This document shows positions 1 to 22,912 of a stretch of DNA of 64,000 nucleotides, piece by piece. Made by a program: the position numbers and the translations under genes. The notes under the pieces were generated by a model, which was not told the DNA's origin, did not search any database, and saw only the letters and a list, made by a program, of their open reading frames with translations. The DNA is from Escherichia coli. GTDB lineage: Bacteria; Pseudomonadota; Gammaproteobacteria; Enterobacterales; Enterobacteriaceae. The number at the start of each line of letters is the position of its first letter. Position 1 is the stretch's first letter. The stretch is taken from assembly GCF_016026235.1 (NCBI RefSeq), contig NZ_CP065613.1; one strand, 5' to 3'.

Positions 1-176
1 CCATGGGTAAATCATTTTGAACGGCTATGGCAGGCGCTTCATGAAACGATAACGCGCAATCATCAGTGCCGGAGATGTGGCAGTTGCTGAAAAAAGTCCA
101 ACACTTTATGGAAACTGCCAGTCCGTTCCCCGGCGGGAGACATGGTCTGGCAAAAGTGTAGCGGTATTAGGCGCAG

Positions 177-865
177 CTATTTAGCGACATATTCCTTTGT
201 TTTATCGTCAGTTCGTAAACGTCCGATAGCGATGATGTGAAGTGCACTATTTGCAGCACGCTCCCCACCCCGATTAAGTCGGTAACGGTTCATTTTTTTA
301 GAAGATACGGTAACCGAGTTGACACCACACAGCACCGCAAAACCTGATTCTATTCTTAGCCGTTGGGGATTATCTCCGGCAGTGATGAGCAACTGCGAAG
401 CGCTTTCGTATCCAACAGCATTACGTTTAATCAGTTCAGGTGCCAGTTCATCGACAATTGCCGCAATCATGACATCAAGGTCGGCGATTTCATCATGTAA
501 CTCGAAATAGCGTCAGGCAAGTGATTTCAATGCAATGCGATAAACGTTGGTAACATTACGATATTCACTGGCACTAGGCTTCCAGGATCCCGGAGTCCTG
601 ATAAGTTGCATACGTGTCATATTTCTGAGTGGTTCGCGTAATTCATCCGGTGCAGAGATAATATAGGAATGGATAATCTGGAGAGCGACTCTGCAGGCTG
701 ATATTGCGGTTTTGCGGCAAGTTTTTGGCATCCGCTTCTACGCCAAATACCTGAAGTAGGAATGGATGCGTTAGCAGCATACATCCGGATCTGCGCGGGG
801 AATAGCCGGAAACGGCTATCCCTACCACAATAGCTAACTTTGTAATAGTGCCCTTTTAGGCTCAT
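177..865 (-). pseudogene. IS110-family transposase remnant (C-terminal portion only, frameshifted)
   Basis: ORF 177..470 (97 aa) carries the IS110-family C-terminal signature VGYESASQLLITAGDNPQRLRIESGFAVLCGV..SSGK..RYRLNRGGERAANSALH; the upstream frames (513..731, 617..865) are broken, and the N-terminal DEDD domain is missing because the LacI-type gene starts at 862. Confidence 0.45.
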
Positions 866-1893
866 GTACTCTGACGTAATTCTATCTGGTAGTTGAATTG
901 CACGATACGCGACTCTTCTGATTCATCATGATTATTATTCAATAGCCCAATCAGTAACTTACCCGTCTCTATCCCCATTTTTTTGTAGTCAATACGGATG
1001 GATGTCAAGGTTGGGTGTGTTTGATCGCAATTGTCTGAACCATCAAGACAAGCTACAGCGATATTTTCAGGAATTTTTAACAAACGCCGCTGGCACTCAA
1101 ACATGATACCCAGCGCAATCTCTTCGTGGCTGCAAATCACAGCATCCAGCTCTGGTTGTCGCAGTAATATCTCGTTTAATGCGTAACGCCCCAATTGCAG
1201 ACTTGCGGCATCCGGCATGGTGATAACAAGATCAGAGTTCTGGTAATGGCTCAACATTGCTTTATGCCAGCCGTTCAGTTGCTGACGTTGCAGGCGGTTG
1301 TCCATATGCGCACCGATAAATCCGATATTCTTATAACCCTGTTCCAGCAGATGTTCGGTCAGTTTATGTGATGCTTCAAAAAATGCTGTTTCGATGGTAA
1401 TTTGAGCCGGACTGAAAGGGGAACCGACAACGTTAATGGTAGGTATATTTGTTTTCTCGAGTATCTGGTGAGTTTTATCAGCCAACTGAGAACCAAAAAT
1501 AACTAACGCCGCCGGGTTGCCTTGAAGAAGCGTCATCAGAATTTCAGCTTCTTTGAGCTGATTATACTCATGACACCCAAGCAGTAGCTGGAATTCATTT
1601 TTATTAAGCACCTGCTGCAACGACTGCATAAAGCGGGAGCTGGCTTTATCTGTCAGGGAAGGAACCAGTACGGCGACTGTATCACTGTGACCAGATGCAA
1701 GGGCGCCAGCAGTTCTGTTGGGAATATAACCCAACTCTTCTACGGCCTGTTCTATCTTTTCCCTCAGCTTGTCAGATACCTGTTCCGGTGTTCTCAGCGC
1801 ACGGGAAACGGTCATGGTTCCGACACCTGCAAAGTTAGCGACCTCCTGCAGCGTCACCCGTCCGGTACCACGGCGCTTACGTGTTTTTTCCAT
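862..1893 (-). CDS. LacI-family transcriptional regulator (343 aa)
   Basis: N-terminal HTH (RVTLQEVANFAGVGTMTVSRAL) followed by a periplasmic-binding-protein-like sugar-binding fold; ATG at 1891-1893; divergent from the PTS genes. Confidence 0.8.
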   Translation of the reverse strand: MEKTRKRRGTGRVTLQEVANFAGVGTMTVSRALRTPEQVSDKLREKIEQAVEELGYIPNRTAGALASGHSDTVAVLVPSLTDKASSRFMQSLQQVLNKNEFQLLLGCHEYNQLKEAEILMTLLQGNPAALVIFGSQLADKTHQILEKTNIPTINVVGSPFSPAQITIETAFFEASHKLTEHLLEQGYKNIGFIGAHMDNRLQRQQLNGWHKAMLSHYQNSDLVITMPDAASLQLGRYALNEILLRQPELDAVICSHEEIALGIMFECQRRLLKIPENIAVACLDGSDNCDQTHPTLTSIRIDYKKMGIETGKLLIGLLNNNHDESEESRIVQFNYQIELRQST

Positions 1894-2038
1894 TTCGACT
1901 CCATGGATAATTACAACCAGCTGTTTTCATTACTGTTATTTCACCATTACTCTTTCCAGTTTTTGCCCACGGTAGCAAATATCCTGTTGCATTGTATATG
2001 CAGGAACCGAATATAGCCAAAGCATGGCGGCAGAGAAA

Positions 2039-2086
2039 TGATAGCGCTATCACAAAGATTGGTAGCGTTATCAGATAGCGCTATCA
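2039..2086. promoter_or_regulatory. Three LacI-type operator-like palindromes with central CG
   Basis: TGATAGCGCTATCA (2039-2052, perfect 14-bp palindrome), TGGTAGCGTTATCA (2059-2072) and AGATAGCGCTATCA (2073-2086), in the divergent regulator/PTS intergenic region. Confidence 0.5.
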
Positions 2087-2163
2087 AATGCGACAATCAT
2101 CACATTAATTAATGCGTAAAATATCTACTCTCCTGTTAATTATCATCGGGAGTTATCAGTAGC

Positions 2164-2607
2164 ATGTTAAAAAATCTATTAAATACAGAGGTCGTTCAGG
2201 TCGTGGAACAGGCCAAAGACTGGCGGGAAGCCGTGGCGATTTCATGCCGGCCGTTGATTGAAAACGGTTCTATCGAACCGCGTTATGTTGATGCGATCTA
2301 TCGCTCGCACGACACTATCGGTCCGTACTATGTGGTTGGCCCTGGTATTGCGATGCCTCATGCGCGCCCGGAAGAGGGAGCTAACAAGCTGTCATTAGCA
2401 CTGACCCTGATCCCTTCAGGTGTGAATTTTGATGCCGATGAAAACGATCCAGTGAAATTACTGATTGTGCTGGCTGCAACCGACAGTACCAGCCACATTG
2501 AAGCGATTTCTCAACTCGCCAAGTTATTCGATAACGAAAAAGACATACAGGCCATTTTGATGGCCAAAACGACGCAGGACATTTTGTCTGTTATTGCGCG
2601 CTATTAA
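2164..2607 (+). CDS. PTS enzyme IIA component, ascorbate (UlaC/SgcA-like) family
   Basis: 147 aa with PTS_EIIA_2-type motifs (GPYYVVGPGIAMPHARPEEG); GGGAG Shine-Dalgarno upstream of the ATG. Confidence 0.8.
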   Translation: MLKNLLNTEVVQVVEQAKDWREAVAISCRPLIENGSIEPRYVDAIYRSHDTIGPYYVVGPGIAMPHARPEEGANKLSLALTLIPSGVNFDADENDPVKLLIVLAATDSTSHIEAISQLAKLFDNEKDIQAILMAKTTQDILSVIARY

Positions 2608-2622
2608 TCCAGAGGAACATTT

Positions 2623-2910
2623 ATGAAAATTACAGTGGTTTGCGGTAACGGCTTAGGCACCAGCCTGATGATGGAAATGAGCATTAAAAGCATTTTGAAG
2701 GATTTGTCCGTCAGCGCTGATGTTGATCACGTCGACCTGGGCTCCGCGAAAGGGACGCCGAGTGATATCTATGTCGGCACCAAAGACATTGCCGAGCAGT
2801 TAGTCGCGCAGTCTGTCGCAGGCAAAATCGTCGCACTGGAAAATATGATTGATAAGAAAGCCATGAGAGAACGTTTATCCGTGGTATTAAACGAATTAGG
2901 CGCACTGTAA
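2623..2910 (+). CDS. PTS enzyme IIB component (UlaB-like)
   Basis: 95 aa; N-terminal KITVVCGNGLGTS cysteine phosphorylation-site motif typical of small IIB proteins. Confidence 0.8.
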   Translation: MKITVVCGNGLGTSLMMEMSIKSILKDLSVSADVDHVDLGSAKGTPSDIYVGTKDIAEQLVAQSVAGKIVALENMIDKKAMRERLSVVLNELGAL

Positions 2911-2922
2911 GCTGGGGGCGAT

Positions 2923-4179
2923 ATGGATTTCTTTCGTTTTTTGATGAGCGATGTACTTTCCGAACCCGCAGTGCTGGTCGGTTTAATCGCCCTGATTGGC
3001 CTGATTGCACAGAAAAAACCGGTAACCGAATGCATTAAAGGTACCGTCAAGACCATTATGGGGTTTGTGATTTTAGGCGCAGGGGCGGGTTTAGTTGTGT
3101 CGTCACTGGGTGACTTCGCAAACATTTTCCAGCATGCCTTTGGTATTCAGGGTGTAGTGCCGAACAATGAAGCCATTGTTTCCGTAGCGCAGAAAAGCTT
3201 CGGGAAAGAAATGGCGATGATTATGTTCTTTGCGATGGTTATCAACATTATGATTGCCCGTTTCACACCGTGGAAATTTATCTTCCTGACCGGTCATCAC
3301 ACGTTGTTTATGTCGATGATGGTAGCGGTAATTCTGGCAACAGCAGGCATGACCGGCATTACGCTTATAGCCGTTGGCTCTTTGGTTGTTGGCGTGGCAA
3401 TGGTCTTTTTCCCGGCTATTGCGCATCCGTACATGAAGAAAGTGACCGGTTCTGATGACGTTGCCATCGGCCACTTCTCAACATTATCTTATGTATTGGC
3501 CGGTTTCATCGGCAGCAAGTTTGGTAATAAAGAGCACTCGACTGAAGACATGAATGTGCCGAAAAGTCTGCTGTTCTTGCGCGACACGCCGGTTGCTATC
3601 TCTTTTACCATGAGCATAATTTTCCTGGTGACGTGCCTGTTTGCGGGTGCAGATGCGGTGAAAGAGCTTAGCGGTGGTAAAAACTGGTTCATGTTCTCTA
3701 TCATGCAATCCATTACCTTCGCAGCTGGCGTGTACATCATTCTGCAGGGTGTGCGCATGGTGATTGCGGAGATTGTCCCGGCATTCAAAGGTATTTCAGA
3801 CAAGCTGGTTCCGAATGCCAGACCTGCTCTCGATTGCCCGGTCGTCTTCCCTTACGCACCTAACGCTGTACTGGTTGGTTTCCTGAGTAGCTTTGCTGCA
3901 GGTTTAATCGGTATGTTCACGTTGTATCTGCTGAACATGATCGTGATTATTCCTGGTGTGGTGCCGCACTTCTTCGTAGGTGCAGCTGCAGGGGTATTCG
4001 GTAATGCAACGGGTGGACGTCGTGGTGCGATTTTGGGTGCCTTCGCTCAAGGCTTGCTTATTACCTTCCTGCCAGTATTCTTATTGCCGGTGCTGGGTGA
4101 TATTGGTTTTGCTAACACCACCTTCAGTGATGCTGACTTTGGCGCACTGGGTATTTTGTTAGGGATTATCGTTCGCTAA
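2923..4179 (+). CDS. PTS enzyme IIC permease, ascorbate (UlaA/SgaT) family
   Basis: 418 aa polytopic membrane protein with UlaA-like segments (IKGTVKTIMGF, VAEIVPAFKGISDKLVPNA). Confidence 0.85.
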   Translation: MDFFRFLMSDVLSEPAVLVGLIALIGLIAQKKPVTECIKGTVKTIMGFVILGAGAGLVVSSLGDFANIFQHAFGIQGVVPNNEAIVSVAQKSFGKEMAMIMFFAMVINIMIARFTPWKFIFLTGHHTLFMSMMVAVILATAGMTGITLIAVGSLVVGVAMVFFPAIAHPYMKKVTGSDDVAIGHFSTLSYVLAGFIGSKFGNKEHSTEDMNVPKSLLFLRDTPVAISFTMSIIFLVTCLFAGADAVKELSGGKNWFMFSIMQSITFAAGVYIILQGVRMVIAEIVPAFKGISDKLVPNARPALDCPVVFPYAPNAVLVGFLSSFAAGLIGMFTLYLLNMIVIIPGVVPHFFVGAAAGVFGNATGGRRGAILGAFAQGLLITFLPVFLLPVLGDIGFANTTFSDADFGALGILLGIIVR

Positions 4180-4192
4180 TATTTTGATGACA

Positions 4193-4245
4193 TTAATATC
4201 CTCCAGGATTTCAGGAACGTGGAGGATATTAATTCCTCTTATTTT
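4193..4245 (+). terminator. Intrinsic terminator after the PTS operon
   Basis: Perfect 13-bp inverted repeat TTAATATCCTCCA...TGGAGGATATTAA (4193-4232) followed by a T-rich tract. Confidence 0.6.
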
Positions 4246-4418
4246 CTCCATTTTTCTTTCTTCCAGTCAGGACTGCATCCGATTAATCGTAAGGCAGTAT
4301 GACTTTCTGTGAGACAGATGCTGGCCAACGTGGGATATTTAACGCGGGTTAACATCGTTGTCAGAGCCGCATGGGTGAGCTGTTGCTACACCCCGGTATT
4401 TCCACCACGGAGGCCAGC

Positions 4419-5546
4419 ATGAACAACAATAACACATTGTACGTCGGGTTAGATGTTCACAAAGAATCGATTACTGTCGCTTATGCTATCAATTCAGAAC
4501 CTGTTGAACTGATGGGTAAAATTGGCACATCACCTACTGATATTCAGAATCTTTGTAAACGTCTCAGGTCAAAGTCATCGCAGGTCAGTATCGTTTATGA
4601 AGCGGGGCCCTGTGGTTATGGACTTTATCGTCGGCTGGTGAAATCCGGTTTTGACTGCATGGTCTGCGCCCCCTCACTTATCCCGAAAAAACCGGGGGAG
4701 CGGGTTAAAACCGATCGCCGTGATGCCATCAGACTTGTGCGTTCACTGCGTGCAGGAGATCTTTCTGCTGTCTACGTACCCGGCATTGAAGATGAGGCAT
4801 TCCGGGATTTGGCCCGGGCATGGGCATCTGCCCGCGATGATTTACGGCATGCAAGGCAACGTCTGAAATCGTTTCTTCTGGTTCATGGGGTCCATTATGT
4901 CGGGCGAGCAGATTGGGGCCCTGCACACCGACGCTGGCTCAGCAAATACTCATTCGAAAGTCCCTGGCGACAATTAGCTTTTGACGAACACCGTCGTACA
5001 ATAGAAGACCGGCAGGCACAATGTGAACGGCTGGAATCCGCCCTGAAGGAGGCCGTTACCGAATGGAGGCTGTATCCGGTAGTAGAGGCGCTGCAAGCCA
5101 TGCGAGGGATTCAGTTTATTACTGCGGTTGGATTAATTTCTGAACTGGGTGATCTGACCCGTTTTGAACATCCACGACAACTGATGTCATGGTTTGGTAT
5201 CACGCCATCAGAATATTCATCGGGTGGAAGCAGACATCAGGGCAGCATTACCAAAGCCGGAAACAGCTATGCCAGAAAGCTATTGGTCGAGGCAGCGTGG
5301 AGTTACCGTCATCCGGCACGCATCAGTCCGGCAATACAAAAAAGGCAGGAAAATTTACCCCGCCCCGTCATTGACAGAGCATGGGATGCTCAACTCAGGC
5401 TTTGTAAGAGGTATCGAAAACTTCAGGCCAAAGGAAAGAATGTCAATATTACAATTGTTGCTGTTGCACGTGAGCTGGCGGGTTTTATCTGGGATATGGG
5501 CCGAATAGCAATATCTGTCGCACAACAACCACAATGTCACAAATAA
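4419..5546 (+). CDS. IS110-family transposase/recombinase (375 aa from the SD-preceded ATG; the ORF track starts at 4371)
   Basis: N-terminal LYVGLDVHKESI RuvC-like DEDD domain and C-terminal Transposase_20-type region (GITPSEYSSGGSRHQGSITKAGNSYARKLL); GGAGG 7 nt upstream of the ATG at 4419. Confidence 0.8.
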   Translation: MNNNNTLYVGLDVHKESITVAYAINSEPVELMGKIGTSPTDIQNLCKRLRSKSSQVSIVYEAGPCGYGLYRRLVKSGFDCMVCAPSLIPKKPGERVKTDRRDAIRLVRSLRAGDLSAVYVPGIEDEAFRDLARAWASARDDLRHARQRLKSFLLVHGVHYVGRADWGPAHRRWLSKYSFESPWRQLAFDEHRRTIEDRQAQCERLESALKEAVTEWRLYPVVEALQAMRGIQFITAVGLISELGDLTRFEHPRQLMSWFGITPSEYSSGGSRHQGSITKAGNSYARKLLVEAAWSYRHPARISPAIQKRQENLPRPVIDRAWDAQLRLCKRYRKLQAKGKNVNITIVAVARELAGFIWDMGRIAISVAQQPQCHK

Positions 5547-5565
5547 AAAATGAGAATAACCAGTT

Positions 5566-5748
5566 CCCTGAAGGCGACGTAGCCCGGTACAAGAGTAACC
5601 CACGTTAGCGCTTGGCGACGGCGGAACAAAGCTGATTCGCGACGTAAGAAAGTGGCAGGCTCATATGACGGACCTCTGTAATGCGGTATCCAACCCGCGA
5701 ATATCAGCGTGATTCACCGTCGGATTTACTGCTACGTCGCCCTCAGGG
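5566..5748 (+). other. Long-range inverted repeat enclosing 147 bp downstream of the IS110-family recombinase (candidate structured RNA)
   Basis: CCCTGAAGGCGACGTAGC (5566-5583) is complementary at 17 of 18 positions to GCTACGTCGCCCTCAGGG (5731-5748). Confidence 0.4.
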
Positions 5749-6134
5749 AATTAAACCTAAAAAGAAAATCGTCAAAATTAGAGATTCCGGTTTGACACGG
5801 AAAGTCATATCAGCGCTGACGGGTGACCCTAAGCCCTGATAATCATAGCTTAAGGTGAGGATTTATGAGGGATTAATTAGGAAAAGTAATAATTAATTTG
5901 TTGTCAGTCGGCGATGTTTGTTAGGCCAATATTTCAAAAATAATCCAGCTTGTCGTCAATAATTGCGATAAAGAGATAAATTAAAGTTAAATAATTAAAT
6001 CATTAAAAAATTACGCCATTAAAATGCGAGGCGTCTTCCGGATTAGAATCGATAAAACAGAATGGGTTAAAGAGAGCGATATAATAGCGGCGGGTGCTTG
6101 AGGCTGTCTGTCTCAGGCATTAGCTGAACGGCAG

Positions 6135-6195
6135 ATAGAGAAAAGCCCCGAGTGATATTTTACCATCAACCCGAGGCCCCCTATATGCTGAACAC
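6135..6195 (-). ncRNA. sokC: sokC antisense RNA of the hokC/mokC locus (position inferred)
   Basis: In hok/sok loci the Sok RNA is antisense to the mok start region; TTGACC (reverse complement of 6223-6228) is a candidate -35. Coordinates are approximate. Confidence 0.3.
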
Positions 6196-6394
6196 ATGTA
6201 GAGTGCCTCTTACTGACCGTAAGGTCAAGGAGAAGAGAGCAATGAAGCAGCATAAGGCGATGATTGTCGCCCTGATCGTCATCTGTATCACCGCCGTAGT
6301 GGCGGCGCTGGTAACGAGAAAAGACCTCTGTGAGGTTCACATCCGAACTGGCCAGACGGAGGTTGCTGTTTTCACGGCTTACGAATCCGAGTAA
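6185..6394 (+). CDS. mokC: MokC, overlapping regulatory reading frame of hokC
   Basis: 69-codon frame MLNTCRVPLTDRKVKEKRA... that contains hokC in the same frame. Confidence 0.65.
   Translation: MLNTCRVPLTDRKVKEKRAMKQHKAMIVALIVICITAVVAALVTRKDLCEVHIRTGQTEVAVFTAYESE
6242..6394 (+). CDS. hokC: HokC (Gef) small membrane toxin
   Basis: 50 aa MKQHKAMIVALIVICITAVVAALVTRKDLCEVHIRTGQTEVAVFTAYESE, matching the Hok family. Confidence 0.85.
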   Translation: MKQHKAMIVALIVICITAVVAALVTRKDLCEVHIRTGQTEVAVFTAYESE

Positions 6395-6417
6395 GAGCAA
6401 CGGCGGGGAGTGATCCC

Positions 6418-7711
6418 CTGAGGGATCCCCAGAAAATTTAGTAAACCATTATCATATTGGTATACCGTTGCTGTAGAACTTTCAGCCCTGCGTCAAGTGA
6501 CAGTGTGTTTAGTATGAGTGGAGAATGTCGAATCACATTCTCCGCCAGTTTTAATAACGAGATGACTCGCCTGTGCTTCACTGTATTTGCCTGATATTTA
6601 TGATGTATCCCTTTGTTTTCCAGGCTGAAACCGCTTAACCACATAATGATACTGGCTAATGTTGCGATCAGACTCAATACCGTGACCCGCCCGGATGAAT
6701 GACTGGCACCAAACCGTAGTCCAAATCCCCAGCGAGGATTTTTTTCATCCCTGAAATTTTGCTCAATTTGCATTCTACGGCTGTATAATTTCATTACCTG
6801 TTTTGGCGAGAACTCAGTACTGTTTGTGAAAATAAACCATGGTGATTTCCCGGCAGTACGAGCTTTAGCCGTCACCGATGGTCTGGTTGCTCTTTCCTTC
6901 GAGCGTTTAAATCTACGACCTTTAGGCTTACTTTTATAAAGATAAAAATGCCCTTCATGTTGTGCATTTTTATCTCGACCCAGCAGGCCTTCACCTAAAT
7001 AAATTGCTGTCGTTGATGCTTTTGTGCCTGAGTCCGACACCTTTTCCCAGCCATTACCAACATTGTAATAATGATTGCCCAGTACCCGGCAAATATAGGT
7101 CCAGCCACGGGAGCGGAGCTGTTGGAACCATCGCCCCTGAAAACCGGCATCTGTAATAACAATGACATCAGTCCCGGGGGAAAAGCACTCAGCAAGCGAT
7201 TCCAGAAAACGCTCATGTACATCTGCATTCGCTGTCTGTGATGATGGAACGACACAACTCATCAACGGTAAAGAACGCCCGTCACATGCCAGGCTTGCCC
7301 GCAAAAGCTGAAAACGAGAGGCATGATAAGCACTCCAGTCAATGAGTATCACAACACGAGACATTCCCCGCGTAATCTTTTGGGTAATTCGCTGAAAAAT
7401 GGTGGAAACCTCATTTTGCAAATGTCGATTCCCCAACAGTCGATCCACCCGCTTTATTTTGTTTTTAACTGATGCCGTACCGGTTAAATGACGCCCGATA
7501 CTGGTAAGTGTGAGGGAAGCGCCATTTATTACAGCATTAGTTGCGTCAATCAGTGATTTTTGACGGTAAAGATGCAAAGGGGCCAGTATATTGTTAAGGA
7601 AATTTTGGCATAATGAACGTGCAGGCATAGTGGTGATCTCCTTGAAATTGTTAGCACAATCAATTAGATCACATCTCACTATGCCTGTCTTGTTTTCTGG
7701 GGATTCCTCAG
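6418..7711 (-). mobile_element. IS10-like (IS4-family) insertion sequence, intact copy, about 1.29 kb
   Basis: Terminal inverted repeats CTGAGGGATCCCCAGAAAA (left) and CTGAGGAATCCCCAGAAAA (right, reverse complement), resembling IS10 ends; flanked by direct repeat GAGTGATCC(C) at 6408-6417 and 7712-7721. Confidence 0.8.
6438..7628 (-). CDS. IS4-family (IS10-group) transposase, 396 aa
   Basis: Shares IS10 transposase motifs (KIKRVDRLLGNRHL, DWSA, DAGF, YSRRMQIEQNFRDEK, QANTVKHRRV); true start is MPARSL at 7628, the ORF-track start at 7727 lies outside the element. Confidence 0.85.
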   Translation of the reverse strand: MPARSLCQNFLNNILAPLHLYRQKSLIDATNAVINGASLTLTSIGRHLTGTASVKNKIKRVDRLLGNRHLQNEVSTIFQRITQKITRGMSRVVILIDWSAYHASRFQLLRASLACDGRSLPLMSCVVPSSQTANADVHERFLESLAECFSPGTDVIVITDAGFQGRWFQQLRSRGWTYICRVLGNHYYNVGNGWEKVSDSGTKASTTAIYLGEGLLGRDKNAQHEGHFYLYKSKPKGRRFKRSKERATRPSVTAKARTAGKSPWFIFTNSTEFSPKQVMKLYSRRMQIEQNFRDEKNPRWGFGLRFGASHSSGRVTVLSLIATLASIIMWLSGFSLENKGIHHKYQANTVKHRRVISLLKLAENVIRHSPLILNTLSLDAGLKVLQQRYTNMIMVY

Positions 7712-7760
7712 GAGTGATCCCCGCCACTTTACAGGTGCTCGCATATCTTCAACGCACCCT

Positions 7761-7794
7761 ATTTTTACCCAGGCCTGCCCACGGGCAGGCTTTT
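7761..7794. terminator. Bidirectional hairpin terminator between dnaJ and the hokC side
   Basis: GCCTGCCCacgGGCAGGC hairpin with TTTT on the plus strand and an A/T run on the minus strand. Confidence 0.4.
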
Positions 7795-7801
7795 GGGGAG
7801 G

Positions 7802-8932
7802 TTAGCGGGTCAGGTCGTCAAAAAACTTCTTCACACCATCAAAGAAGCTCTTTGAGCGCGGGCTGTTGTGCTCGCCGGTTGGGCCACCGAAGCTTTCTTG
7901 CAGCTCTTGCAGCAGCTGTTTCTGCTTCTCGTTCAGGCCTACCGGTGTTTCGACGACAACGCGGCACAGCAAATCACCCTGTGCGCCACCGCGGACAGAC
8001 TTGACGCCTTTACCGCGCATACGGAATAGCTTACCGGTCTGGGTTTCGCCAGGCACTTTCAGTTTGACGCGACCATCAAGGGTCGGTACTTCGATTTCGC
8101 CACCCAGCGCCGCCATAGCGAAGTTGATCGGGACTTCGCAATACAGGTTGTTGCCTTCACGCTCGAAAATCGGGTGCTGTTTAACCTGAACCTGAACGTA
8201 CAGATCGCCTGCCGGTGCGCCATGCTCGCCCGCTTCACCTTCGCCCGCAAGACGGATGCGGTCTCCAGTGTCCACCCCTGCCGGGATTTTAACGGACAGC
8301 GTTTTGCTGCGCTCAACACGACCATGACCATGACATTTGTTGCACGGATCTTTGATCAGCGTACCGCGGCCCTGACAGTGTGGACAGGTCTGCTGCACGG
8401 CAAAGAAACCCTGGCGCATCTGCACCTGACCAGAACCATGACAGGTCGGACAGGTCTGCGGCTGTGTACCTGGTTTTGCACCGCTACCGTGGCAAACGTC
8501 ACACTCTTCCAGAGTCGGAATGCGGATCTCTTTGGTCACGCCACGTACAGCTTCTTCGAGGGTGAGCTCCATGTTATAGCGTAAATCAGCACCGCGCGCC
8601 GCACGTTGACGACCACGTCCGCCGCCAAAAATATCGCCGAAAACGTCACCAAAAATATCGCTGAAGTCTGCGCCGCCGCCAAAACCGCCGCCGCCCATGC
8701 CACCTTGCTCAAACGCAGCATGACCATACTGATCGTATGCCGCACGTTTTTGCGAGTCGGTCAGAACTTCATAAGCTTCCTTGATCTCTTTAAATTTCGC
8801 CTCGGCCTCTTTGTCACCCTGGTTACGGTCTGGGTGGTATTTCATGGCCAGGCGTTTGTAGGCCTTTTTGATTTCACGCTCTTCCGCTGTTTTGGAAACG
8901 CCTAAAATCTCGTAATAATCTTGCTTAGCCAT
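7802..8932 (-). CDS. dnaJ: Chaperone DnaJ (Hsp40)
   Basis: [13 protein letters not shown]-domain, Gly/Phe-rich region and CxxCxGxG zinc-finger repeats; 376 aa. Confidence 0.95.
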
Positions 8933-9020
8933 CTTTTTTAAATTGCCCCTAGATGAATGCACGGGCGGAGAGGAAATTCCCCTTCGCCCGTGTCAGTATA
9001 ATTACCCGTTTATAGGGCGA

Positions 9021-10937
9021 TTATTTTTTGTCTTTGACTTCTTCAAATTCAGCGTCGACAACATCGTCATCTTTCGCGTTGTTTGCAGAAGCATCAGCAC
9101 CGGCAGTCTGCTGCTGGGCATGTTGCTGCTGGGCGATTTCCATCAGTTTCTGGGAAACCTGTGCCAGTTCCTGCATTTTCGCTTCGATAGCGGCTTTGTC
9201 TTCACCTTTCAGAGCAGTTTCCAGTGCAGTCAGCGCAGACTCGATAGCAGTTTTGTCGTCAGCCGGCAGTTTGTCGCCTGCTTCTTCAACCTGCTTACGG
9301 GTGCTGTGCAGCAGATGGTCGCCCTGGTTGCGAGTCTGTACCAGCTCTTCAAACTTACGGTCAGCTTCGGCGTTAGCTTCTGCGTCGCGTACCATTTTCT
9401 GGATTTCATCTTCGTTCAGACCAGAAGAAGCCTTGATGGTGATCTTCTGCTCTTTACCGCTGTTTTTATCTTTCGCGGAAACGTGCAGGATACCGTCAGC
9501 ATCGATATCGAAGGTAACTTCGATCTGCGGCATGCCGCGCGGTGCCGGGTTGATACCATCCAGGTTGAACTGACCCAGAGATTTGTTATCAGCCGCACGT
9601 TTACGTTCACCCTGCAGCACGTGGATGGTTACCGCAGACTGGTTGTCTTCAGCGGTAGAGAACACCTGGCTGTGCTTGGTCGGGATAGTGGTGTTTTTCG
9701 CGATCAGCGTCGTCATCACACCGCCCATGGTTTCGATACCCAGAGACAGCGGGGTAACGTCCAGCAGCAGTACGTCTTTTACGTCACCAGTCAGAACACC
9801 ACCCTGAACAGCAGCACCGATTGCTACAGCTTCGTCCGGGTTAACATCTTTACGCGGCTCTTTACCAAAGAACTCAGCAACTTTCTTCTGAACCATTGGC
9901 ATACGAGTCTGACCACCAACGAGGATAACGTCGTCGATATCAGATACGGACAGGCCAGCGTCCTGCAGTGCAACTTTCAGCGGCTCAATGGAACGGTTTA
10001 CCAGATCTTCAACCAGGCTTTCCAGTTTCGCACGAGTCACTTTGATGTTCATGTGTTTCGGACCGGTCGCGTCTGCAGTGATGTACGGCAGGTTAACGTC
10101 GGTCTGCTGAGCGGAAGACAGTTCGATTTTCGCTTTTTCTGCCGCTTCTTTCAGGCGCTGCATTGCCAGCGGATCGTTGCGCAGGTCAATGCCCTGATCT
10201 TTCTTGAATTCTTCAACCAGATAGTTGATCAGACGGCTGTCGAAGTCTTCACCACCCAGGTGGGTATCACCGTTGGTTGCCAGAACTTCGAAGGTTTTTT
10301 CGCCGTCAACTTCGTCGATTTCGATAATAGAAATATCGAAAGTACCACCACCCAGGTCATAAACCGCGATAGTACGGTTGCCAGTACCTTTGTCCAGACC
10401 GTAAGCCAGCGCAGCTGCGGTCGGTTCGTTGATGATACGTTTTACTTCGAGACCAGCGATACGGCCTGCGTCTTTGGTTGCCTGACGCTGAGCATCGTTA
10501 AAGTATGCCGGTACGGTGATAACAGCTTCAGTTACCGGTTCACCCAGGTAATCTTCAGCGGTTTTCTTCATTTTTTTCAGCACTTCAGCAGAGATCTGCG
10601 GCGGTGCCATTTTCTGGCCTTTAACTTCGACCCATGCGTCGCCGTTATCAGCAGCAATAATTTTGAACGGCATGATGGAAACATCACGCTGTACTTCTTC
10701 GTCCTGGAAGCGGCGGCCAATCAGGCGTTTAATCGCAAACAGGGTGTTTTGCGGGTTCGTCACTGCCTGACGTTTAGCCGGCTGACCAACCAGAGTTTCA
10801 CCATCCTGGGTATAGGCAATAATAGAAGGCGTGGTGCGATCGCCTTCGGCGTTCTCCAGCACGCGAGGAGTGGTGCCATCCATAATCGCTACACAAGAGT
10901 TGGTAGTACCCAGGTCGATACCAATTATTTTACCCAT
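9021..10937 (-). CDS. dnaK: Chaperone DnaK (Hsp70)
   Basis: [21 protein letters not shown]... 638 aa, immediately upstream of dnaJ. Confidence 0.97.
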
Positions 10938-10985
10938 CTAAACGTCTCCACTATATATTCGGTCATCATGTGGTTGTGAGTCTGT

Positions 10986-11089
10986 AATAGGGGCGAAACG
11001 TCTGGTTTCAACTGCCCAATTTCATTTTTTTGCAGACTCACTCACTGCGGTTGACTACTAAATGGGGTCGTAACCCACGTCATCAAGGG
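10986..11089 (-). promoter_or_regulatory. dnaK heat-shock (sigma-32) promoters P1 and P2
   Basis: On the minus strand: CCCTTGATG ... CCCCATTTA (P1, 11059-11089) and TTGAAA ... CCCCTATTA (P2, 10986-11011), matching the sigma-32 consensus. Confidence 0.6.
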
Positions 11090-11313
11090 GGAGATGCAAA
11101 AATTTTTTGTGCTTTTGCTCAGAAATTTCGCGATATGGCAGGACAAGACGTAAAATTGACAGCAATTTTATTCATATAAAGAATGAATCGCAGCCAAGGT
11201 ATTCATCAAAAAATTGTAATAAAAAGAAAAGATTACGTGCCTGAATCTTCTCTTTATCAGCAGTAAACTAGTGGGTATTCATCCCCCTACCTCTTCCCAC
11301 TAAGAGAATCCTT

Positions 11314-11718
11314 ATGAAATCCGTTTTTACGATTTCCGCCAGCCTGGCGATTAGCCTGATGCTGTGCTGCACGGCGCAGGCAAACGACCATAAACTCCTC
11401 GGCGTCATTGCAATGCCGCGTAACGAAACCAACGATCTGGCGCTGAAACTTCCTGTTTGTCGCATTGTGAAACGCATACAACTCTCTGCCGACCATGGCG
11501 ATTTACAGTTAAGCGGTGCATCGGTTTATTTCAAAGCCGCCCGTAGCGCCAGTCAGAGCCTGAATATTCCTTCAGAAATAAAAGAAGGGCAAACCACTGA
11601 CTGGATCAACATTAACAGTGATAACGACAATAAACGCTGCGTCTCAAAAATCACCTTTTCCGGTCATACGGTGAACTCATCGGATATGGCCACGCTGAAA
11701 ATTATCGGCGACGACTAA
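11314..11718 (+). CDS. yaaI: DUF2541 secreted protein YaaI
   Basis: 134 aa with signal peptide; K-12 gene order dnaK-yaaI. Confidence 0.9.
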
Positions 11719-11743
11719 CGCCAGAATATAGAAGCCACAAAAA

Positions 11744-12457
11744 ATGAATGTTAATTACCTGAATGATTCAGATCTGGATTTTCTCCAGCATTGTAGTGAG
11801 GAACAGTTAGCAAATTTCGCCCAGCTGCTCACCCATAATGAAAAAGGCAAAACTAGCCTCTCCAGCGTACTGATGCGCAACGAACTGTTTAAATCGATGG
11901 AAGGACATCCCGAGCAACATCGCCGCAACTGGCAGCTGATTGCTGGAGAATTACAGCATTTTGGTGGCGATAGTATCGCCAACAAACTGCGCGGACACGG
12001 TAAATTGTATCGGGCCATTTTGCTCGATGTTTCAAAACGATTGAAGCTGAAAGCCGACAAAGAGATGTCTACGTTTGAAATTGAGCAACAGTTACTGGAA
12101 CAATTTCTGCGTAATACCTGGAAGAAAATGGACGAGGAACATAAGCAGGAGTTTCTGCACGCGGTCGATGCCAGGGTGAATGAGCTGGAAGAGCTGCTGC
12201 CGCTGCTGATGAAAGACAAATTATTGGCAAAAGGCGTGTCGCATTTGCTTTCCAGCCAATTGACCCGCATTTTACGCACCCACGCAGCAATGAGCGTGCT
12301 TGGGCATGGTTTGCTGCGCGGCGCGGGTCTGGGAGGCCCTGTGGGCGCAGCATTAAATGGGGTTAAAGCGGTCAGCGGCAGCGCCTATCGCGTGACGATT
12401 CCAGCCGTACTGCAAATCGCCTGCCTGCGCCGGATGGTTAGCGCCACTCAGGTCTGA
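11744..12457 (+). CDS. yaaW: Uncharacterized protein YaaW
   Basis: 237 aa, K-12 synteny. Confidence 0.9.
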   Translation: MNVNYLNDSDLDFLQHCSEEQLANFAQLLTHNEKGKTSLSSVLMRNELFKSMEGHPEQHRRNWQLIAGELQHFGGDSIANKLRGHGKLYRAILLDVSKRLKLKADKEMSTFEIEQQLLEQFLRNTWKKMDEEHKQEFLHAVDARVNELEELLPLLMKDKLLAKGVSHLLSSQLTRILRTHAAMSVLGHGLLRGAGLGGPVGAALNGVKAVSGSAYRVTIPAVLQIACLRRMVSATQV

Positions 12458-12605
12458 TACCGGAAACCGGGGAAAATTTTCATTTTCCCCTCAAAAGATC
12501 GTAGACACTGCCCCACTGGCTGATTATTATGCCGCGCCCTGAAAACACTACAGTTATTCAGGGAAATTATTTCACCATTCATTCGATGATGATTTTTGAG
12601 GAATT

Positions 12606-13172
12606 ATGGGCAACACTAAGTTGGCTAATCCGGCACCGCTGGGCCTGATGGGCTTCGGCATGACCACCATTCTGCTTAACCTGCACAACGTGGGTTATTT
12701 CGCTCTGGACGGTATTATTCTTGCCATGGGCATTTTCTACGGCGGCATCGCGCAAATTTTTGCCGGTCTGCTGGAGTACAAAAAAGGCAACACTTTCGGT
12801 TTAACCGCATTCACCTCTTACGGTTCTTTCTGGCTGACGCTGGTTGCGATTCTGCTGATGCCGAAACTGGGTCTGACCGATGCGCCAAATGCACAGTTCC
12901 TTGGTGTCTACCTGGGTCTGTGGGGCGTATTTACGCTGTTTATGTTCTTCGGCACTCTGAAAGGCGCACGCGTCCTGCAATTCGTTTTCTTTAGCCTGAC
13001 CGTGCTGTTTGCCCTGCTGGCGATCGGTAACATTGCCGGTAATGCCGCGATCATCCACTTTGCCGGCTGGATTGGTCTGATCTGCGGTGCCAGCGCAATC
13101 TATCTGGCGATGGGTGAAGTGCTGAACGAGCAGTTTGGTCGCACCGTTCTGCCGATTGGTGAATCCCACTAA
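12606..13172 (+). CDS. satP: Succinate-acetate/proton symporter SatP (YaaH)
   Basis: 188 aa GPR1/FUN34/YaaH-family membrane protein. Confidence 0.9.
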   Translation: MGNTKLANPAPLGLMGFGMTTILLNLHNVGYFALDGIILAMGIFYGGIAQIFAGLLEYKKGNTFGLTAFTSYGSFWLTLVAILLMPKLGLTDAPNAQFLGVYLGLWGVFTLFMFFGTLKGARVLQFVFFSLTVLFALLAIGNIAGNAAIIHFAGWIGLICGASAIYLAMGEVLNEQFGRTVLPIGESH

Positions 13173-13177
13173 TTGTT

Positions 13178-13212
13178 TTGAGATCCCCCCGCTCGGGGGG
13201 ATTTTTTTATTC
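13178..13212. terminator. Bidirectional terminator between satP and mog
   Basis: ATCCCCCCGCTCGGGGGGAT hairpin flanked by A/T runs. Confidence 0.6.
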
Positions 13213-13794
13213 GCTAACGTCGCGTCTTGCACTCTTCGGTCTGAATGCAGCAACCACTTCTGGTGCCGTTTCAACGTATGGCCCTTCCAGCAACTGAATG
13301 CAGTACGGTACGCTGGCAAAAATACCGTGTACCACAACGTTACCCTCAGCGTCCTTCACACCTTCCAGCGTCTCTTTAATAGACTTCGGCTGACCGGGTA
13401 AGTTAAGGATCAGCGCCTGTTTGCGAATCACACCCACCTGACGCGAAAGGATCGCAGTTGGTACAAAATGCAGGCTGATCTGACGCATCTGTTCACCAAA
13501 GCCAGGCATCTCGCGGTCCGCTACTGCCAGCGTCGCATCGGGCGTTACGTCACGACGCGCCGGGCCAGTTCCGCCCGTGGTGAGCACCAGATGGCAACTC
13601 ATTTCATCCACCAGCTCACACAACGTTTGTTCGATGATCGCCTGCTCATCGGGGATTAAGCGGGTTTCCAGTTCAAACGGCGTGGTTAGCGCCGATGTCA
13701 GCCATTCTTCCAGCGCAGGGATGCCTTTATCCTGATAAACGCCGCTGGATGCGCGATCAGAGATGGAAACTAAGCCAATACGTAAAGTATTCAT
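13207..13794 (-). CDS. mog: Molybdopterin adenylyltransferase Mog
   Basis: MNTLRIGLVSISDRASSGVY..., 195 aa. Confidence 0.9.
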   Translation of the reverse strand: MNTLRIGLVSISDRASSGVYQDKGIPALEEWLTSALTTPFELETRLIPDEQAIIEQTLCELVDEMSCHLVLTTGGTGPARRDVTPDATLAVADREMPGFGEQMRQISLHFVPTAILSRQVGVIRKQALILNLPGQPKSIKETLEGVKDAEGNVVVHGIFASVPYCIQLLEGPYVETAPEVVAAFRPKSARRDVSE

Positions 13795-13908
13795 CAAGAT
13801 TTTTCCGTTTAAACAGTCTCGTTAAACAGAATGATACACTGCGAAGGGAGTGACAGACAGGCTTCAGAAGAGGTAGCGTGACCGACTTCCCGGTCACGCT
13901 AAGAATGA

Positions 13909-14862
13909 TTACAGCAGATCGCCGATCATTTTTTCCAGTTTTTCCTGGTCAATAGCAAACTTACGGATACCTTCCGCCAGTTTATCTACTGCCATTGGAT
14001 CCTGGTTGTGCTGCCACAGGAACTCGGACTCAGTGATACGCGCCGGACGCGCTTTCACTTCGCCGGTGTAAGACAGTTTACGTTCGATAGCCCCTTCGCT
14101 CTCCGCCAGCTCTTTCAGCAGTGCCGGTGCGATGGTCAGACGGTCGCAGCCTGCCAGTTCCAGAATTTCGCCGATGTTACGGAAGCTTGCGCCCATAACC
14201 ACGGTTTCATAACCGTGCTCTTTGTAGTACTGGTAGATTTCAGATACAGAAACCACGCCCGGATCTTCTGCCGGAGCGTACTCTTTCTTATCGGTATTCG
14301 CTTTGTACCAGTCAAGAATACGGCCAACAAACGGCGAGATCAGGAACACGCCCGCTTCCGCACAAGCACGAGCCTGAGCGAAGGAGAACAGCAGGGTCAG
14401 GTTACAGTTGATGCCTTCTTTTTCCAGCTGTTCTGCAGCACGGATACCCTGCCAGGTAGAAGCCAGTTTGATCAGAATACGATCGTTGCTAATACCTGCA
14501 TCGTTGTAAAGTTTGATCAGGCGTTTTGCTTTCGCAATTGACGCTTCGGTGTCATAGGAAAGACGCGCATCAACTTCAGTTGAGATACGGCCCGGAACCA
14601 GTTTCAGGATTTCCAGACCAATATTTACTGCCAGTTTGTCGGTCGCGTCCACGATCTGCTGCGCGCGATCGTTGCTCTGCTGTTTCGCCCAGGCGACAGC
14701 ATCATCAATCAACTTACGATATTCCGGAATCTGCGCTGCGTTAAGAATGAGAGAAGGGTTGGTTGTGGCATCCTGCGGTTGATACAGCTTCATTGCCGCG
14801 ATGTCCCCAGTGTCGGCCACTACGGTGGTGTACTGACGAAGGGAGGTCAATTTGTCCGTCAT
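13909..14862 (-). CDS. talB: Transaldolase B
   Basis: [21 protein letters not shown]..., 317 aa; the ORF-track start at 14925 is an upstream extension. Confidence 0.95.
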
Positions 14863-15140
14863 GATAGTATTTCTCTTTAAACAGCTTGTTAGGGGGATGT
14901 AACCGGTCTGCCCTGATGATATCACGACGCAACGTCAGCGCAACCGCCGACAAGACGGTTATCGCCAGGCGAGACTGTTTCGGATTTCTGACACTGCGTT
15001 GATATCGCCCGCCATTTTTATACAAAACCTCATGTATGCTACGCAGAAGTTATCAAGTACCTCGTAGCGTATATACTTCTTAAACAATTGGTAACGTTTA
15101 CACAGGAAAGTCATCGCGACCGGCAATAAGAGGGATATGC

Positions 15141-16571
15141 ATGCCAGATTTTTTCTCCTTTATTAACAGCGTCCTTTGGGGATCGGTAATGATTTACCTG
15201 CTCTTCGGCGCAGGTTGTTGGTTCACTTTTCGCACCGGATTTGTGCAGTTTCGCTACATCCGCCAGTTTGGCAAAAGTCTTAAAAATAGCATTCATCCAC
15301 AGCCAGGCGGTTTAACCTCATTTCAGTCATTGTGTACCAGTCTTGCGGCGCGCGTGGGTAGCGGCAACCTGGCCGGCGTTGCGCTGGCAATTACCGCCGG
15401 TGGACCTGGAGCCGTCTTTTGGATGTGGGTTGCCGCGTTTATCGGCATGGCGACCTCGTTTGCCGAATGTTCTCTGGCACAACTTTATAAAGAACGTGAC
15501 GTCAATGGACAGTTTCGTGGCGGACCGGCATGGTATATGGCGCGCGGGCTGGGGATGCGTTGGATGGGCGTTCTGTTCGCCGTCTTTTTGCTCATCGCCT
15601 ATGGCATAATTTTCAGCGGAGTTCAGGCGAACGCCGTTGCCCGCGCCCTAAGTTTTTCTTTTGATTTTCCTCCGCTGGTGACAGGCATTATTCTCGCTGT
15701 CTTTGCTCTGCTGGCAATCACTCGCGGTCTTCATGGCGTCGCCCGGCTCATGCAGGGGTTTGTCCCGTTGATGGCGATAATCTGGGTGCTGACCAGCATG
15801 GTGATTTGCGTAATAAATATCGGGCAACTTCCCCACGTCATTTGGTCTATTTTTGAGAGTGCTTTTGGCTGGCAGGAAGCGGCAGGCGGCGCGGCGGGAT
15901 ATACCTTAAGCCAGGCGATTACTAACGGTTTTCAGCGCAGTATGTTTTCCAATGAGGCGGGAATGGGTTCGACGCCAAACGCGGCAGCGGCAGCGGCGTC
16001 CTGGCCTCCGCATCCGGCAGCGCAAGGGATTGTCCAGATGATTGGCATTTTTATCGACACCCTGGTCATCTGTACGGCAAGCGCCATGCTGATATTACTG
16101 GCGGGTAACGACACAACCTACATGCCGCTGGAAGGTATTCAGCTTATCCAGAAGGCGATGCGGGTGCTAATGGGTTCCTGGGGTGCTGAGTTTGTTACCC
16201 TCGTGGTTATTCTGTTTGCCTTCAGCTCCATCGTTGCCAACTACATTTATGCCGAAAACAATCTCTTCTTTTTACGCCTGAACAACCCTAAAGCGATCTG
16301 GTGTTTGCGGATCTGCACCTTCGCAACGGTCATCGGCGGCACCTTGCTAAGCCTTCCGCTGATGTGGCAATTGGCAGATATCATAATGGCCTGCATGGCT
16401 ATTACCAATTTGACCGCCATTTTACTGCTCTCGCCTGTGGTTCATACCATTGCCAGTGATTATCTACGCCAGCGTAAACTCGGCGTGCGCCCGGTGTTTG
16501 ATCCGTTGCGTTATCCGGATATCGGTCGCCAGCTTTCTCCGGACGCGTGGGATGATGTTTCGCAGGAGTAA
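15141..16571 (+). CDS. yaaJ: Alanine/glycine:cation symporter family transporter YaaJ
   Basis: 476 aa polytopic membrane protein, K-12 synteny. Confidence 0.9.
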   Translation: MPDFFSFINSVLWGSVMIYLLFGAGCWFTFRTGFVQFRYIRQFGKSLKNSIHPQPGGLTSFQSLCTSLAARVGSGNLAGVALAITAGGPGAVFWMWVAAFIGMATSFAECSLAQLYKERDVNGQFRGGPAWYMARGLGMRWMGVLFAVFLLIAYGIIFSGVQANAVARALSFSFDFPPLVTGIILAVFALLAITRGLHGVARLMQGFVPLMAIIWVLTSMVICVINIGQLPHVIWSIFESAFGWQEAAGGAAGYTLSQAITNGFQRSMFSNEAGMGSTPNAAAAAASWPPHPAAQGIVQMIGIFIDTLVICTASAMLILLAGNDTTYMPLEGIQLIQKAMRVLMGSWGAEFVTLVVILFAFSSIVANYIYAENNLFFLRLNNPKAIWCLRICTFATVIGGTLLSLPLMWQLADIIMACMAITNLTAILLLSPVVHTIASDYLRQRKLGVRPVFDPLRYPDIGRQLSPDAWDDVSQE

Positions 16572-16640
16572 TCACAACTATCGATCAACTCATTCTCTTT
16601 TTTTGCTAAAGTCGGCATAAATTTCCTGCAAGGACTGGAT

Positions 16641-17417
16641 ATGCTGATTCTTATTTCACCTGCGAAAACGCTTGATTACCAAAGCCCGTTGACCACCACG
16701 CGCTATACGCTGCCGGAGCTGTTAGACAATTCCCAGCAGTTGATCCATGAAGCGCGGAAACTGACGCCTCCGCAGATTAGCACGCTGATGCGCATCAGCG
16801 ACAAACTGGCGGGTATCAACGCCGCTCGCTTTCATGACTGGCAGCCAGATTTCACGCCGGAGAATGCCCGCCAGGCGATTCTGGCGTTTAAAGGTGATGT
16901 CTACACCGGCTTGCAGGCCGAAACCTTCAGCGAAGACGATTTCGATTTTGCCCAACAGCATTTGCGAATGCTTTCCGGCTTGTATGGCGTACTGCGCCCG
17001 CTCGATTTAATGCAGCCTTATCGTCTGGAAATGGGGATCCGTCTTGAGAATGCCCGAGGGAAAGATCTGTATCAATTCTGGGGAGATATCATCACCAACA
17101 AGCTGAACGAGGCGCTCGCAGCACAAGGCGATAATGTGGTGATTAATCTGGCGTCAGATGAGTATTTTAAATCGGTGAAGCCGAAGAAATTGAATGCCGA
17201 GATTATCAAGCCGGTGTTCCTCGATGAGAAGAACGGCAAATTTAAGATAATCAGCTTCTACGCTAAGAAAGCACGCGGTCTGATGAGTCGTTTTATTATT
17301 GAAAATCGGCTGACCAAACCAGAGCAACTGACAGGTTTTAATAGCGAAGGTTACTTCTTTGATGAAGCTTCCTCCAGCAATGGCGAACTGGTGTTTAAAC
17401 GCTACGAGCAGCGTTAA
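16641..17417 (+). CDS. yaaA: Peroxide stress resistance protein YaaA
   Basis: 258 aa, K-12 synteny. Confidence 0.9.
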
Positions 17418-17429
17418 GTTTGCAGTCAA

Positions 17430-17560
17430 TGCCGGATGCGGCGTGAACGCCTTATCCGGCCTACAAAAGCATGCAGATTCAATATATTGCAGAATTCACG
17501 TAGGCCTGATAAGACGCGCCAGCGTCGCATCAGGCGCTGAATGCCGGATTGTTACCCGGC
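17430..17560. repeat. REP/BIME palindromic element cluster
   Basis: GCCGGATGCGGCGTGAACGCCTTATCCGGCCTACA-type REP units in both orientations. Confidence 0.7.
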
Positions 17561-17569
17561 ATTTGTCAT

Positions 17570-17866
17570 TTAGCGGTGATGTTTGCCTGGACCATGACCG
17601 CCGTGATGATCATGAGGAGCTTTCTTATGGTGGCGCGGCGGTGGCGGCGGTCCGTGTGGGTGCCAGCGATTGCCTCGCCATTCATAATGTTGTTTCCACC
17701 AGCCGTGGTCGCGCCAGTGACCGCCATCCCAGTAATAGCCACGATTATCACGATCGCCTATCTGTAATTTTACTGACGGGACTAACGTAATTTCCGCAGC
17801 CTGTGCTGCCATGGGAGCGACCAGAACCAGGGAAAGTGCGAGTACGATAGATTGCATCTTTTTCAC
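17570..17866 (-). CDS. yaaX: DUF2502 secreted protein YaaX
   Basis: 98 aa with signal peptide and His/Trp/Gly/Pro-rich C-terminus. Confidence 0.8.
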
Positions 17867-18030
17867 AGGTTACTCCTTTTATCATTGCCCGTTATGGGTC
17901 GATATCTGGAGATTACGCGATGAGAACGACGGTTGTTATTCTCCGCAATCCTAATCTCTAAGTTACCGCATTTATTGAGAATTTCTCCTTTTTCCCTGCC
18001 GTTTTTCTCCATAATTTCTTCATAAAAAAG

Positions 18031-18070
18031 CCGGGCTGCATAAAAGCAAACCCGGCCTGATTGAGATAAT
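18031..18070 (-). terminator. thr operon terminator
   Basis: On the minus strand GCCGGGTTTGCTTTTATGCAGCCCGGC followed by TTTTTTAT, just downstream of thrC. Confidence 0.6.
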
Positions 18071-18079
18071 GAATAGATT

Positions 18080-20299: not shown

Positions 20300-20300
20300 G

Positions 20301-22763: not shown

Positions 22764-22787
22764 GGTTGTTACCTCGTTACCTTTGGT

Positions 22788-22830
22788 CGAAAAAAAAGCC
22801 CGCACTGTCAGGTGCGGGCTTTTTTCTGTG
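22788..22830 (-). terminator. thr attenuator (leader terminator)
   Basis: GCCCGCACCTGACAGTGCGGGC hairpin followed by a T run on the minus strand, between thrL and thrA. Confidence 0.7.
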
Positions 22831-22843
22831 TTTCCTGTACGCG

Positions 22844-22912
<69 letters not shown>

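Follow-up and report, generated by a model that had tools for sequence, protein, structure and literature searches.

We analysed a 64,000-nucleotide stretch of Escherichia coli DNA (hereafter, the window) in which K-12 gene order breaks off beside hokC and nhaA and nhaR are missing from their usual place. The window most probably shows one end of an inversion of ~126 kb bounded by two inverted copies of ISSso6, generated by homologous recombination between two copies that were already present. The nhaA and nhaR genes are intact but displaced to the other end of the inversion. An initial annotation, made from the sequence of the window, had offered three explanations, namely an IS-associated insertion before nhaA, rearrangement through an IS, and deletion; of these, the rearrangement is supported by the evidence below.

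The breakpoint and its two flanks

By BLAST against MG1655, positions 5812-6417 of the window correspond to MG1655 17333..16728 (97.9% identity), positions 7711-23098 to 15389..1 (about 99%) and positions 23099-64000 to 4641652..4600394 (about 98%). IS events are the sole breaks in the matches from dnaJ (7802..8932, minus strand), with which the inverted block in K-12 order opens, to dnaC at the end of the window, which bears out the K-12 order that the initial annotation had read there. Collinearity had been said to end between hokC and an IS110-family element, with the junction somewhere in 5547-6184. Alignment of that interval to the K-12 sokC-nhaA spacer, the check proposed at the time, places the end of K-12 homology at exactly 5811/5812, which is the right end of ISSso6 and is equivalent to MG1655 17333/17334, a point that precedes the nhaA ATG by 156 bp. 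The 638 bp of the interval consist of the ISSso6 tail (5547-5811) and native spacer. The proposed location of the junction therefore stands, and its proposed AT-rich component does not: the tract at ~5880-6010 is native sokC-nhaA intergenic DNA, and we rejected it as a breakpoint feature. The K-12-like DNA that begins at the breakpoint (5812..6417, plus strand) comprises the core AG (5812-5813), the spacer with its AT-rich tract, the sokC/hok leader and mokC/hokC.

The sokC-nhaA part of the interval (query 266-638, window 5812-6184) is found in 5,425 of 5,426 complete E. coli genomes, and the whole of 5547-6184 in just 4 of them. None of the 5,426 has the left junction, at which PTS IIC meets the IS (window 3900-4700). 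A tblastn search with the K-12 proteins finds no NhaA or NhaR homologue in the entire 64-kb window (best E = 2.2), confirming that the two genes are absent from their expected place. A 52-aa ORF at 5681-5839 (plus strand) is called as a gene in some annotations (L026, L049-L053). We rejected it as a gene, as it runs across the right end of ISSso6 and 28 bp into the native spacer, and used it as an exact-match tag to find genomes with the junction.

On the other side of ISSso6, positions 1-4293 are 100% identical to the PTS island of E. coli SE15 and of many other E. coli. The cassette encodes a LacI-family regulator (862..1893, minus strand) and, on the plus strand, PTS IIA (2164..2607), PTS IIB (2623..2910) and an ascorbate-type PTS IIC (2923..4179); it is followed by the left target half of the island site, TCGTA-AG (4287..4293, plus strand), whose AG is the shared core dinucleotide. 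In SE15 and other strains a small transposase remnant directly follows the cassette, and after it come a DUF4432 epimerase-like gene, fucP, rbsK and the gene for a DeoR regulator, the SE15 empty site reading ...TTAATCGTAAG to the left of the insertion point and CGCTCCGAG... to its right. In other E. coli this PTS/sugar island is located about 150 kb from thrL in the anticlockwise direction. An old IS110-family transposase remnant at 177..860 (minus strand), in which a 97-aa ORF (177-470) matches PF02371 (3.6e-7), is also present in SE15 at 100% identity; this pseudogene is separate, older, native to the island and unrelated to the junction. Best matches over 186-5626 in STEC were considered as instances of the same junction and rejected: they joined non-collinear pieces, with the IS110 pseudogene on the cassette's other side.

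The native flank carries a sok/hok leader (Rfam RF01794, 6092-6244, plus strand; 119.5 bits against a gathering score of 59) and an intact 50-aa Hok ORF (hokC, 6242-6394, plus strand; PF01848 on the called gene), and is a hok/sok type I toxin-antitoxin locus. An ISEc60-like IS4-family element, named after its annotation in FDAARGOS_943, begins 23 bp past the hokC stop (6418..7710, minus strand; transposase 6438-7628, 396 aa, PF01609 1.8e-20). It fills the GGGG-N6-CCCC hokC-dnaJ hotspot occupied by IS186A in K-12, and K-12 homology resumes exactly at the IS186A boundaries. Its target-site duplication is ~12 bp (GGAGTGATCCCC; flanks 6404-6417 and 7711-7722), as against 10 bp for the K-12 IS186. 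An IS at this position is presumably the means by which hokC is silenced in K-12. The IS4-family element lies in the opposite orientation in GCA_901482675.2 (L049), is absent in L051 and CFSAN029787 (L066), and has many copies in GCA_031665325.1. Elsewhere in the window, at about 41480-43132, K-12 hipH (yjjJ; 4,621,656-4,623,102) is missing; in its place stands the same IS4-family element, represented by its two ends (41892-42221 and 42990-43134) and split by an IS1 (42215-42989) that is 99.6% identical to K-12 IS1A.

ISSso6, its target and a predicted guide RNA

The element at the junction is a complete ISSso6 of 1518 bp (4294..5811, plus strand), with ends set against empty sites and a boundary that is ambiguous by the 2-bp AG. 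Positions 4289-6500 are 99.86% identical to FDAARGOS_943, in which NCBI names the gene "IS110-like element ISSso6 family transposase"; ISSso6 itself is already catalogued and is listed for S. sonnei 53G (PMC7373316). The transposase (4419..5546, plus strand; 375 aa) is of the DEDD type and matches PF01548 (2.4e-11) and PF02371 (8.1e-24), both above curated cut-offs. The non-coding region downstream of the gene is 265 bp long (5547-5811), versus 125 bp upstream (4294-4418). The subterminal inverted repeat, TATGACTTTCCGTG, is 14 bp long and is set in from the left end of the element by 4 bp and from its right end by 2 bp. Its left arm (4298..4311, plus strand) reads TATGACTTTC[T]GTG and its right arm (5796..5809, plus strand) falls within the 3' non-coding region; position 4308 is C in the consensus and T in this copy alone, which leaves the window copy with 13/14 matches. 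By its domains, its longer downstream non-coding region, its subterminal repeats and its target specificity, ISSso6 belongs to the IS110 family and is of the IS1111 type.

The empty site reads ...GGCTGTAAGCGCT(C/G)ACG... in K-12 and IS-free relatives and ...AATCGTAAGCGCTCCGAG... in SE15, and the window reads ...AATCGTAAG[4294-5811]AGCGCTGACGGG... at ISSso6. Empty sites equal the left flank plus the right flank with a single common AG, and a conventional target-site duplication is absent. Among the copies that we fetched, all 14 distinct full-length left flanks end in TAAG, mostly as (C/T)GTAAG, and 10 of the 13 distinct right-end junctions read AG-CG(C/T). Both of the sites joined in the window are good ISSso6 targets, with GTA-AG-CGCT in common.

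The 3' non-coding region (5547..5811, plus strand) is a predicted seekRNA/bridge-RNA region with a structured core at about 5562-5751; its fold has a minimum free energy of -88 kcal/mol (z = -4.64, 0/200 shuffles). It contains two target-like motifs on the plus strand, the palindromic AGCGCT (5607-5612) and CGTAAG (5643-5648), each of which occurs once in ISSso6, and the two are found together in 0.7% of shuffles. An Rfam scan of 4200-6500 gave no match to a bridge/seekRNA family and found sok alone. The fold and the motifs fit a predicted RNA that would specify the target.

At some loci, part of the ISSso6 right end is repeated in tandem just after the element. These duplicates start at window-equivalent position 5651, after GTAAGAA-AG (L030 8159-8325, L062), or at 5607, in GTT-AGCGCT (L061). 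That they begin at the two target-like motifs suggests that the guide-encoding DNA was itself targeted, followed by collapse. In other copies (L025/L063, L058, L059), ISSso6 sits inside the tip of an IS66-family left inverted repeat (GTAAG/CGTAAACTG... and GTAAG/CGTACAGCC...), and L025 has an inverted repeat 2.5 kb downstream that matches it at 18/24 positions. The tips of IS66-type inverted repeats seem to be landing sites for ISSso6.

The reciprocal junction and the origin of the rearrangement

Exact-protein look-ups were informative for the lineage-specific IS4-like transposase, the NhaA allele, the I365 transposase allele and the junction-spanning ORFs. Those with PTS IIC and DnaJ were too widespread, returning ordinary contexts in 24 blocks, and the DnaJ look-up showed that the hokC-nhaA spacer is variable. 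The I365 allele is that of the window copy (5513A, an M365I change) and is found on only 5 contigs of the collection.

The unrearranged order nhaR-nhaA-ISSso6-mokC/hokC-dnaJ is present in at least four genomes: FDAARGOS_943 (in full, nhaR-nhaA-ISSso6-mokC-IS4-like-dnaJ), EIEC CFSAN029787, GCA_901482675.2 (L026/L049) and GCA_900457155.1 (L051), and IS-free relatives (L027, L028, L031-L034) carry the same NhaA allele. Contig UGFA01000002.1 of GCA_900449985.1 is 100.000% identical to window positions 1-13839 (L050) and also holds the reciprocal junction, in which DeoR-rbsK-fucP-DUF4432-Tnp is joined through ISSso6 to nhaA-nhaR (L030/L067). The right flank at this junction, CGCTCCGAGAAGTACG, is the SE15 right flank, and an extra 159-bp partial duplicate of the ISSso6 right end is present there. 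The two ISSso6 copies on the contig, at 2,019,430-2,020,947 (plus strand) and 2,147,104-2,148,621 (minus strand), are inverted relative to each other with ~126 kb between them. When the coordinates of UGFA01000002.1 are converted, the nhaA ATG lies 127.8 kb from the hokC-side junction and ~69.6 kb past the 3' end of the window. We examined the inverted segment inside the window; roughly 68 kb of it extends beyond.

A second long-contig assembly, GCA_031665325.1, contains the same PTS-IS-hokC junction with 1 mismatch in 17,628 bp, and up to three further places have it as well. In GCA_031665325.1 the nhaA-linked ISSso6 is followed by an IS66 element, not by the island; the right half of the island is joined to another ISSso6 copy with a different left flank, and the two relevant copies, separated by 1.49 Mb, are direct repeats. 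This arrangement indicates that ISSso6 copies have swapped flanks repeatedly in the lineage. In another assembly (L052; GCA_001260435.1, CWUY01000269.1), a third kind of left flank, with genes for a LamB-like porin and a GH1 beta-glucosidase, ending in ...CAGCCGATCGTAAG, leads via ISSso6 to the sokC-side right flank; this is either another ISSso6 flank exchange or a different native spacer in that background. Between hokC and nhaA, several other E. coli (L038, L040, L041, L042 and L044) carry three additional genes, for a sulfatase, a Tsx-like channel and a protein of 419 aa. The hokC-nhaA spacer is a site of recurrent variation independent of ISSso6.

In the arrangement of SE15 and K-12, ISSso6 copies at the two sites would face in opposite directions, so a single reciprocal exchange predicts exactly the two junctions observed, both of which are base-precise, with flanks equal to the SE15 and K-12 empty sites. 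Under the scheme that we propose, ISSso6 would have entered the sokC-nhaA spacer 156 bp upstream of nhaA, giving the unrearranged state seen in relatives. Another ISSso6 would have entered the island downstream of PTS IIC, facing the other way on the chromosome, an intermediate that we infer. Homologous recombination, presumably of the RecA type, between the inverted copies would then have flipped ~126 kb, from hokC-dnaJ-dnaK-thr through dnaC to the right half of the island, yielding PTS-IS-hokC (the window) and, ~128 kb away, nhaR-nhaA-IS-island right half. The second parental junction of this scheme would read PTS IIC-GTAAG-ISSso6-(159-bp partial right end)-AGCGCTCCGAG. Its PTS-IS left part occurs in 0 of the 5,426 complete E. 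coli genomes; for the PTS-ISSso6-island junction, the junction-ORF look-up returned IS-truncated short contigs only and exact-protein look-ups returned none.

Single-nucleotide differences between ISSso6 copies bear on where the exchange would have occurred. The window copy has 4308T and 5513A, all nhaA-linked copies and the consensus have 4308C and 5513G, and the copy between ubiC and malM shares 5513A. This pattern indicates that the island-site copy arose independently of the nhaA-site copy, and it places the exchange to the right of 5513, either within 5514-5811 or at the right boundary of the IS. A crossover would have to fall within the final 298 bp of the 1518-bp element, an a priori chance of about 20%, and an exchange at the boundary fits equally well. 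The differences are consistent with one reciprocal exchange. The 159-bp duplicate at the reciprocal junction calls for a prior event at the island site, and the most likely source of this partial right end is an earlier self-insertion there that then collapsed.

The same two junctions could have been made by the RNA-guided DEDD recombinase of ISSso6 in place of host homologous recombination, which we regard as unlikely. It would have acted in one of two ways: by swapping flanks exactly at both IS right boundaries, or by direct transfer within the molecule to the inverted GTAAGCGCT target, which in a single step would have inverted the segment and also duplicated the IS. We know of no description of right-end by right-end exchange for elements of the IS1111 type, and this counts against a role for the recombinase. 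In its favor, both breakpoints are bona fide ISSso6 target sites, an exchange at the right boundary accommodates the nucleotide differences with no crossover inside the IS, and the second parental junction turned up neither among the complete E. coli genomes nor in the junction-ORF look-up. The partial right-end duplications at guide-like motifs point to aberrant element-mediated events in the lineage, and copy-preserving and direct-transfer pathways are reported for another IS110 element in a 2025 preprint (10.1101/2025.10.25.684509). However, the window copy has 5513A, as does the ubiC-malM copy, and the nhaA-site copy has 5513G, so the former is not a fresh replica of the latter; the partial right-end duplication at the island site implies an earlier, independent history of insertion there; and homologous recombination between IS copies is the well-documented cause of inversions in these genomes (PMC12795559). 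A fuller version of this idea, which strikes us as decidedly improbable, is that the ~126-kb inversion was a natural event programmed by a seekRNA/bridge RNA and carried out by the ISSso6 recombinase, not RecA, at the two GTA-AG-CGCT sites, with the spacer and the IS66-type tips serving as recurrent landing and recombination pads set by the guides CGUAAG and AGCGCU.

Two explanations without an inversion fare worse against the contigs described above. A mis-join across a repeated 1.5-kb IS is a natural concern, as ISSso6 is multicopy (13-14 places in FDAARGOS_943) and short-read contigs break at it. An assembly artefact is nevertheless very improbable: the junction is common to two multi-megabase contigs that otherwise differ (GCA_900449985.1 and GCA_031665325.1), the exact reciprocal junction is present on the same contig as the first, and 4308T and 5513A, private SNPs of the IS copy at the junction, are continuous with the flank on either side. 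The remaining alternatives of the initial annotation, a simple insertion of the PTS island and IS between hokC and nhaA or an IS-mediated deletion of nhaA and nhaR, match the local appearance, and other E. coli do have an insertion in this spacer, yet we find them scarcely credible. Had there been an insertion, nhaA might have been expected just beyond the IS110-family remnant at the window edge; upstream of position 1, the window-identical contig instead continues with NanE and a gene for PTS EIIC/EIIB, which form the remainder of the PTS/NanE island in SE15 order (L050, L045). A deletion is contradicted by nhaA (388 aa) and nhaR (299 aa), which are intact on that contig ~128 kb away and still joined to the ISSso6 left end (L030/L067). 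Homologous recombination between two pre-existing inverted copies of ISSso6 remains our preferred explanation.

Relation to known systems

For annotation, the apparent loss of nhaA and nhaR is resolved, as the genes lie at the far end of an IS-bounded inversion. The reversed block of ~126 kb includes dnaKJ, thrABC, deoCABD and three tRNA-Leu genes. If there is no compensating rearrangement, it would be reversed within one replichore, and the orientation of its genes with respect to replication would change. More generally, a site-specific element of the IS110/IS1111 type can pre-set the end points of a large rearrangement through its short target. The analysis adds the exact breakpoint, a consensus for the ISSso6 target, the apparent landing of ISSso6 in IS66-type inverted-repeat tips and the place where nhaA now lies.

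Compared with dnaJ-IS186A-hokC/sokC-nhaA-nhaR of K-12, the window has the same dnaJ-dnaC order, the same hokC/sokC locus and an IS4-family element in the identical hotspot, but the IS in that hotspot is a different one, ISSso6 occupies 17333/17334, and nhaA and nhaR are displaced by the inversion. The IS1111-family elements IS4321 and IS5075 insert into the terminal inverted repeats of Tn21-family transposons. ISSso6 likewise lands in the inverted-repeat tip of another mobile element, the GTAAG/CGT tip of IS66-family left repeats; unlike IS4321 and IS5075, its host element is of the IS66 family, and it also uses chromosomal look-alikes such as the sokC-nhaA spacer.

ISSso6 further resembles the IS1111-family elements ISEc11, ISKpn4 and ISPa11 (Siddiquee et al. 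2024, PMC11187229) in its DEDD domains, longer downstream non-coding region and subterminal repeats, and in having an orientation-specific short target without conventional duplication and non-coding sequences that match it. Those elements have a 3' seekRNA; the ISSso6 RNA is a predicted one, and the target of ISSso6 differs, being (C/T)GTA-AG-CG(C/T).

Inversions bounded by IS elements are commonplace in Shigella and EIEC (PMC12795559, PMC7373316). We found no description of this ~126-kb inversion in that literature (PMC12795559, PMC7373316), and a ~130-kb inversion in S. sonnei (PMC12795559), considered as the same event, was rejected because its gene list (yhiM...hdeAB) belongs to an unrelated region. 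The event is an ordinary one, not unexpected for IS-rich Shigella/EIEC-like genomes, and IS-bounded inversion is a kind of change already known. The IS4- and IS3-flanked inversions of S. sonnei (PMC12795559), set against a background of IS expansion (PMC7373316), likewise involve an inverted IS pair, precise and reciprocal junctions and an IS-rich genome. In contrast, ISSso6 is here a low-copy, site-specific element, and the end points of the inversion are set by target sequence and not by random insertion.
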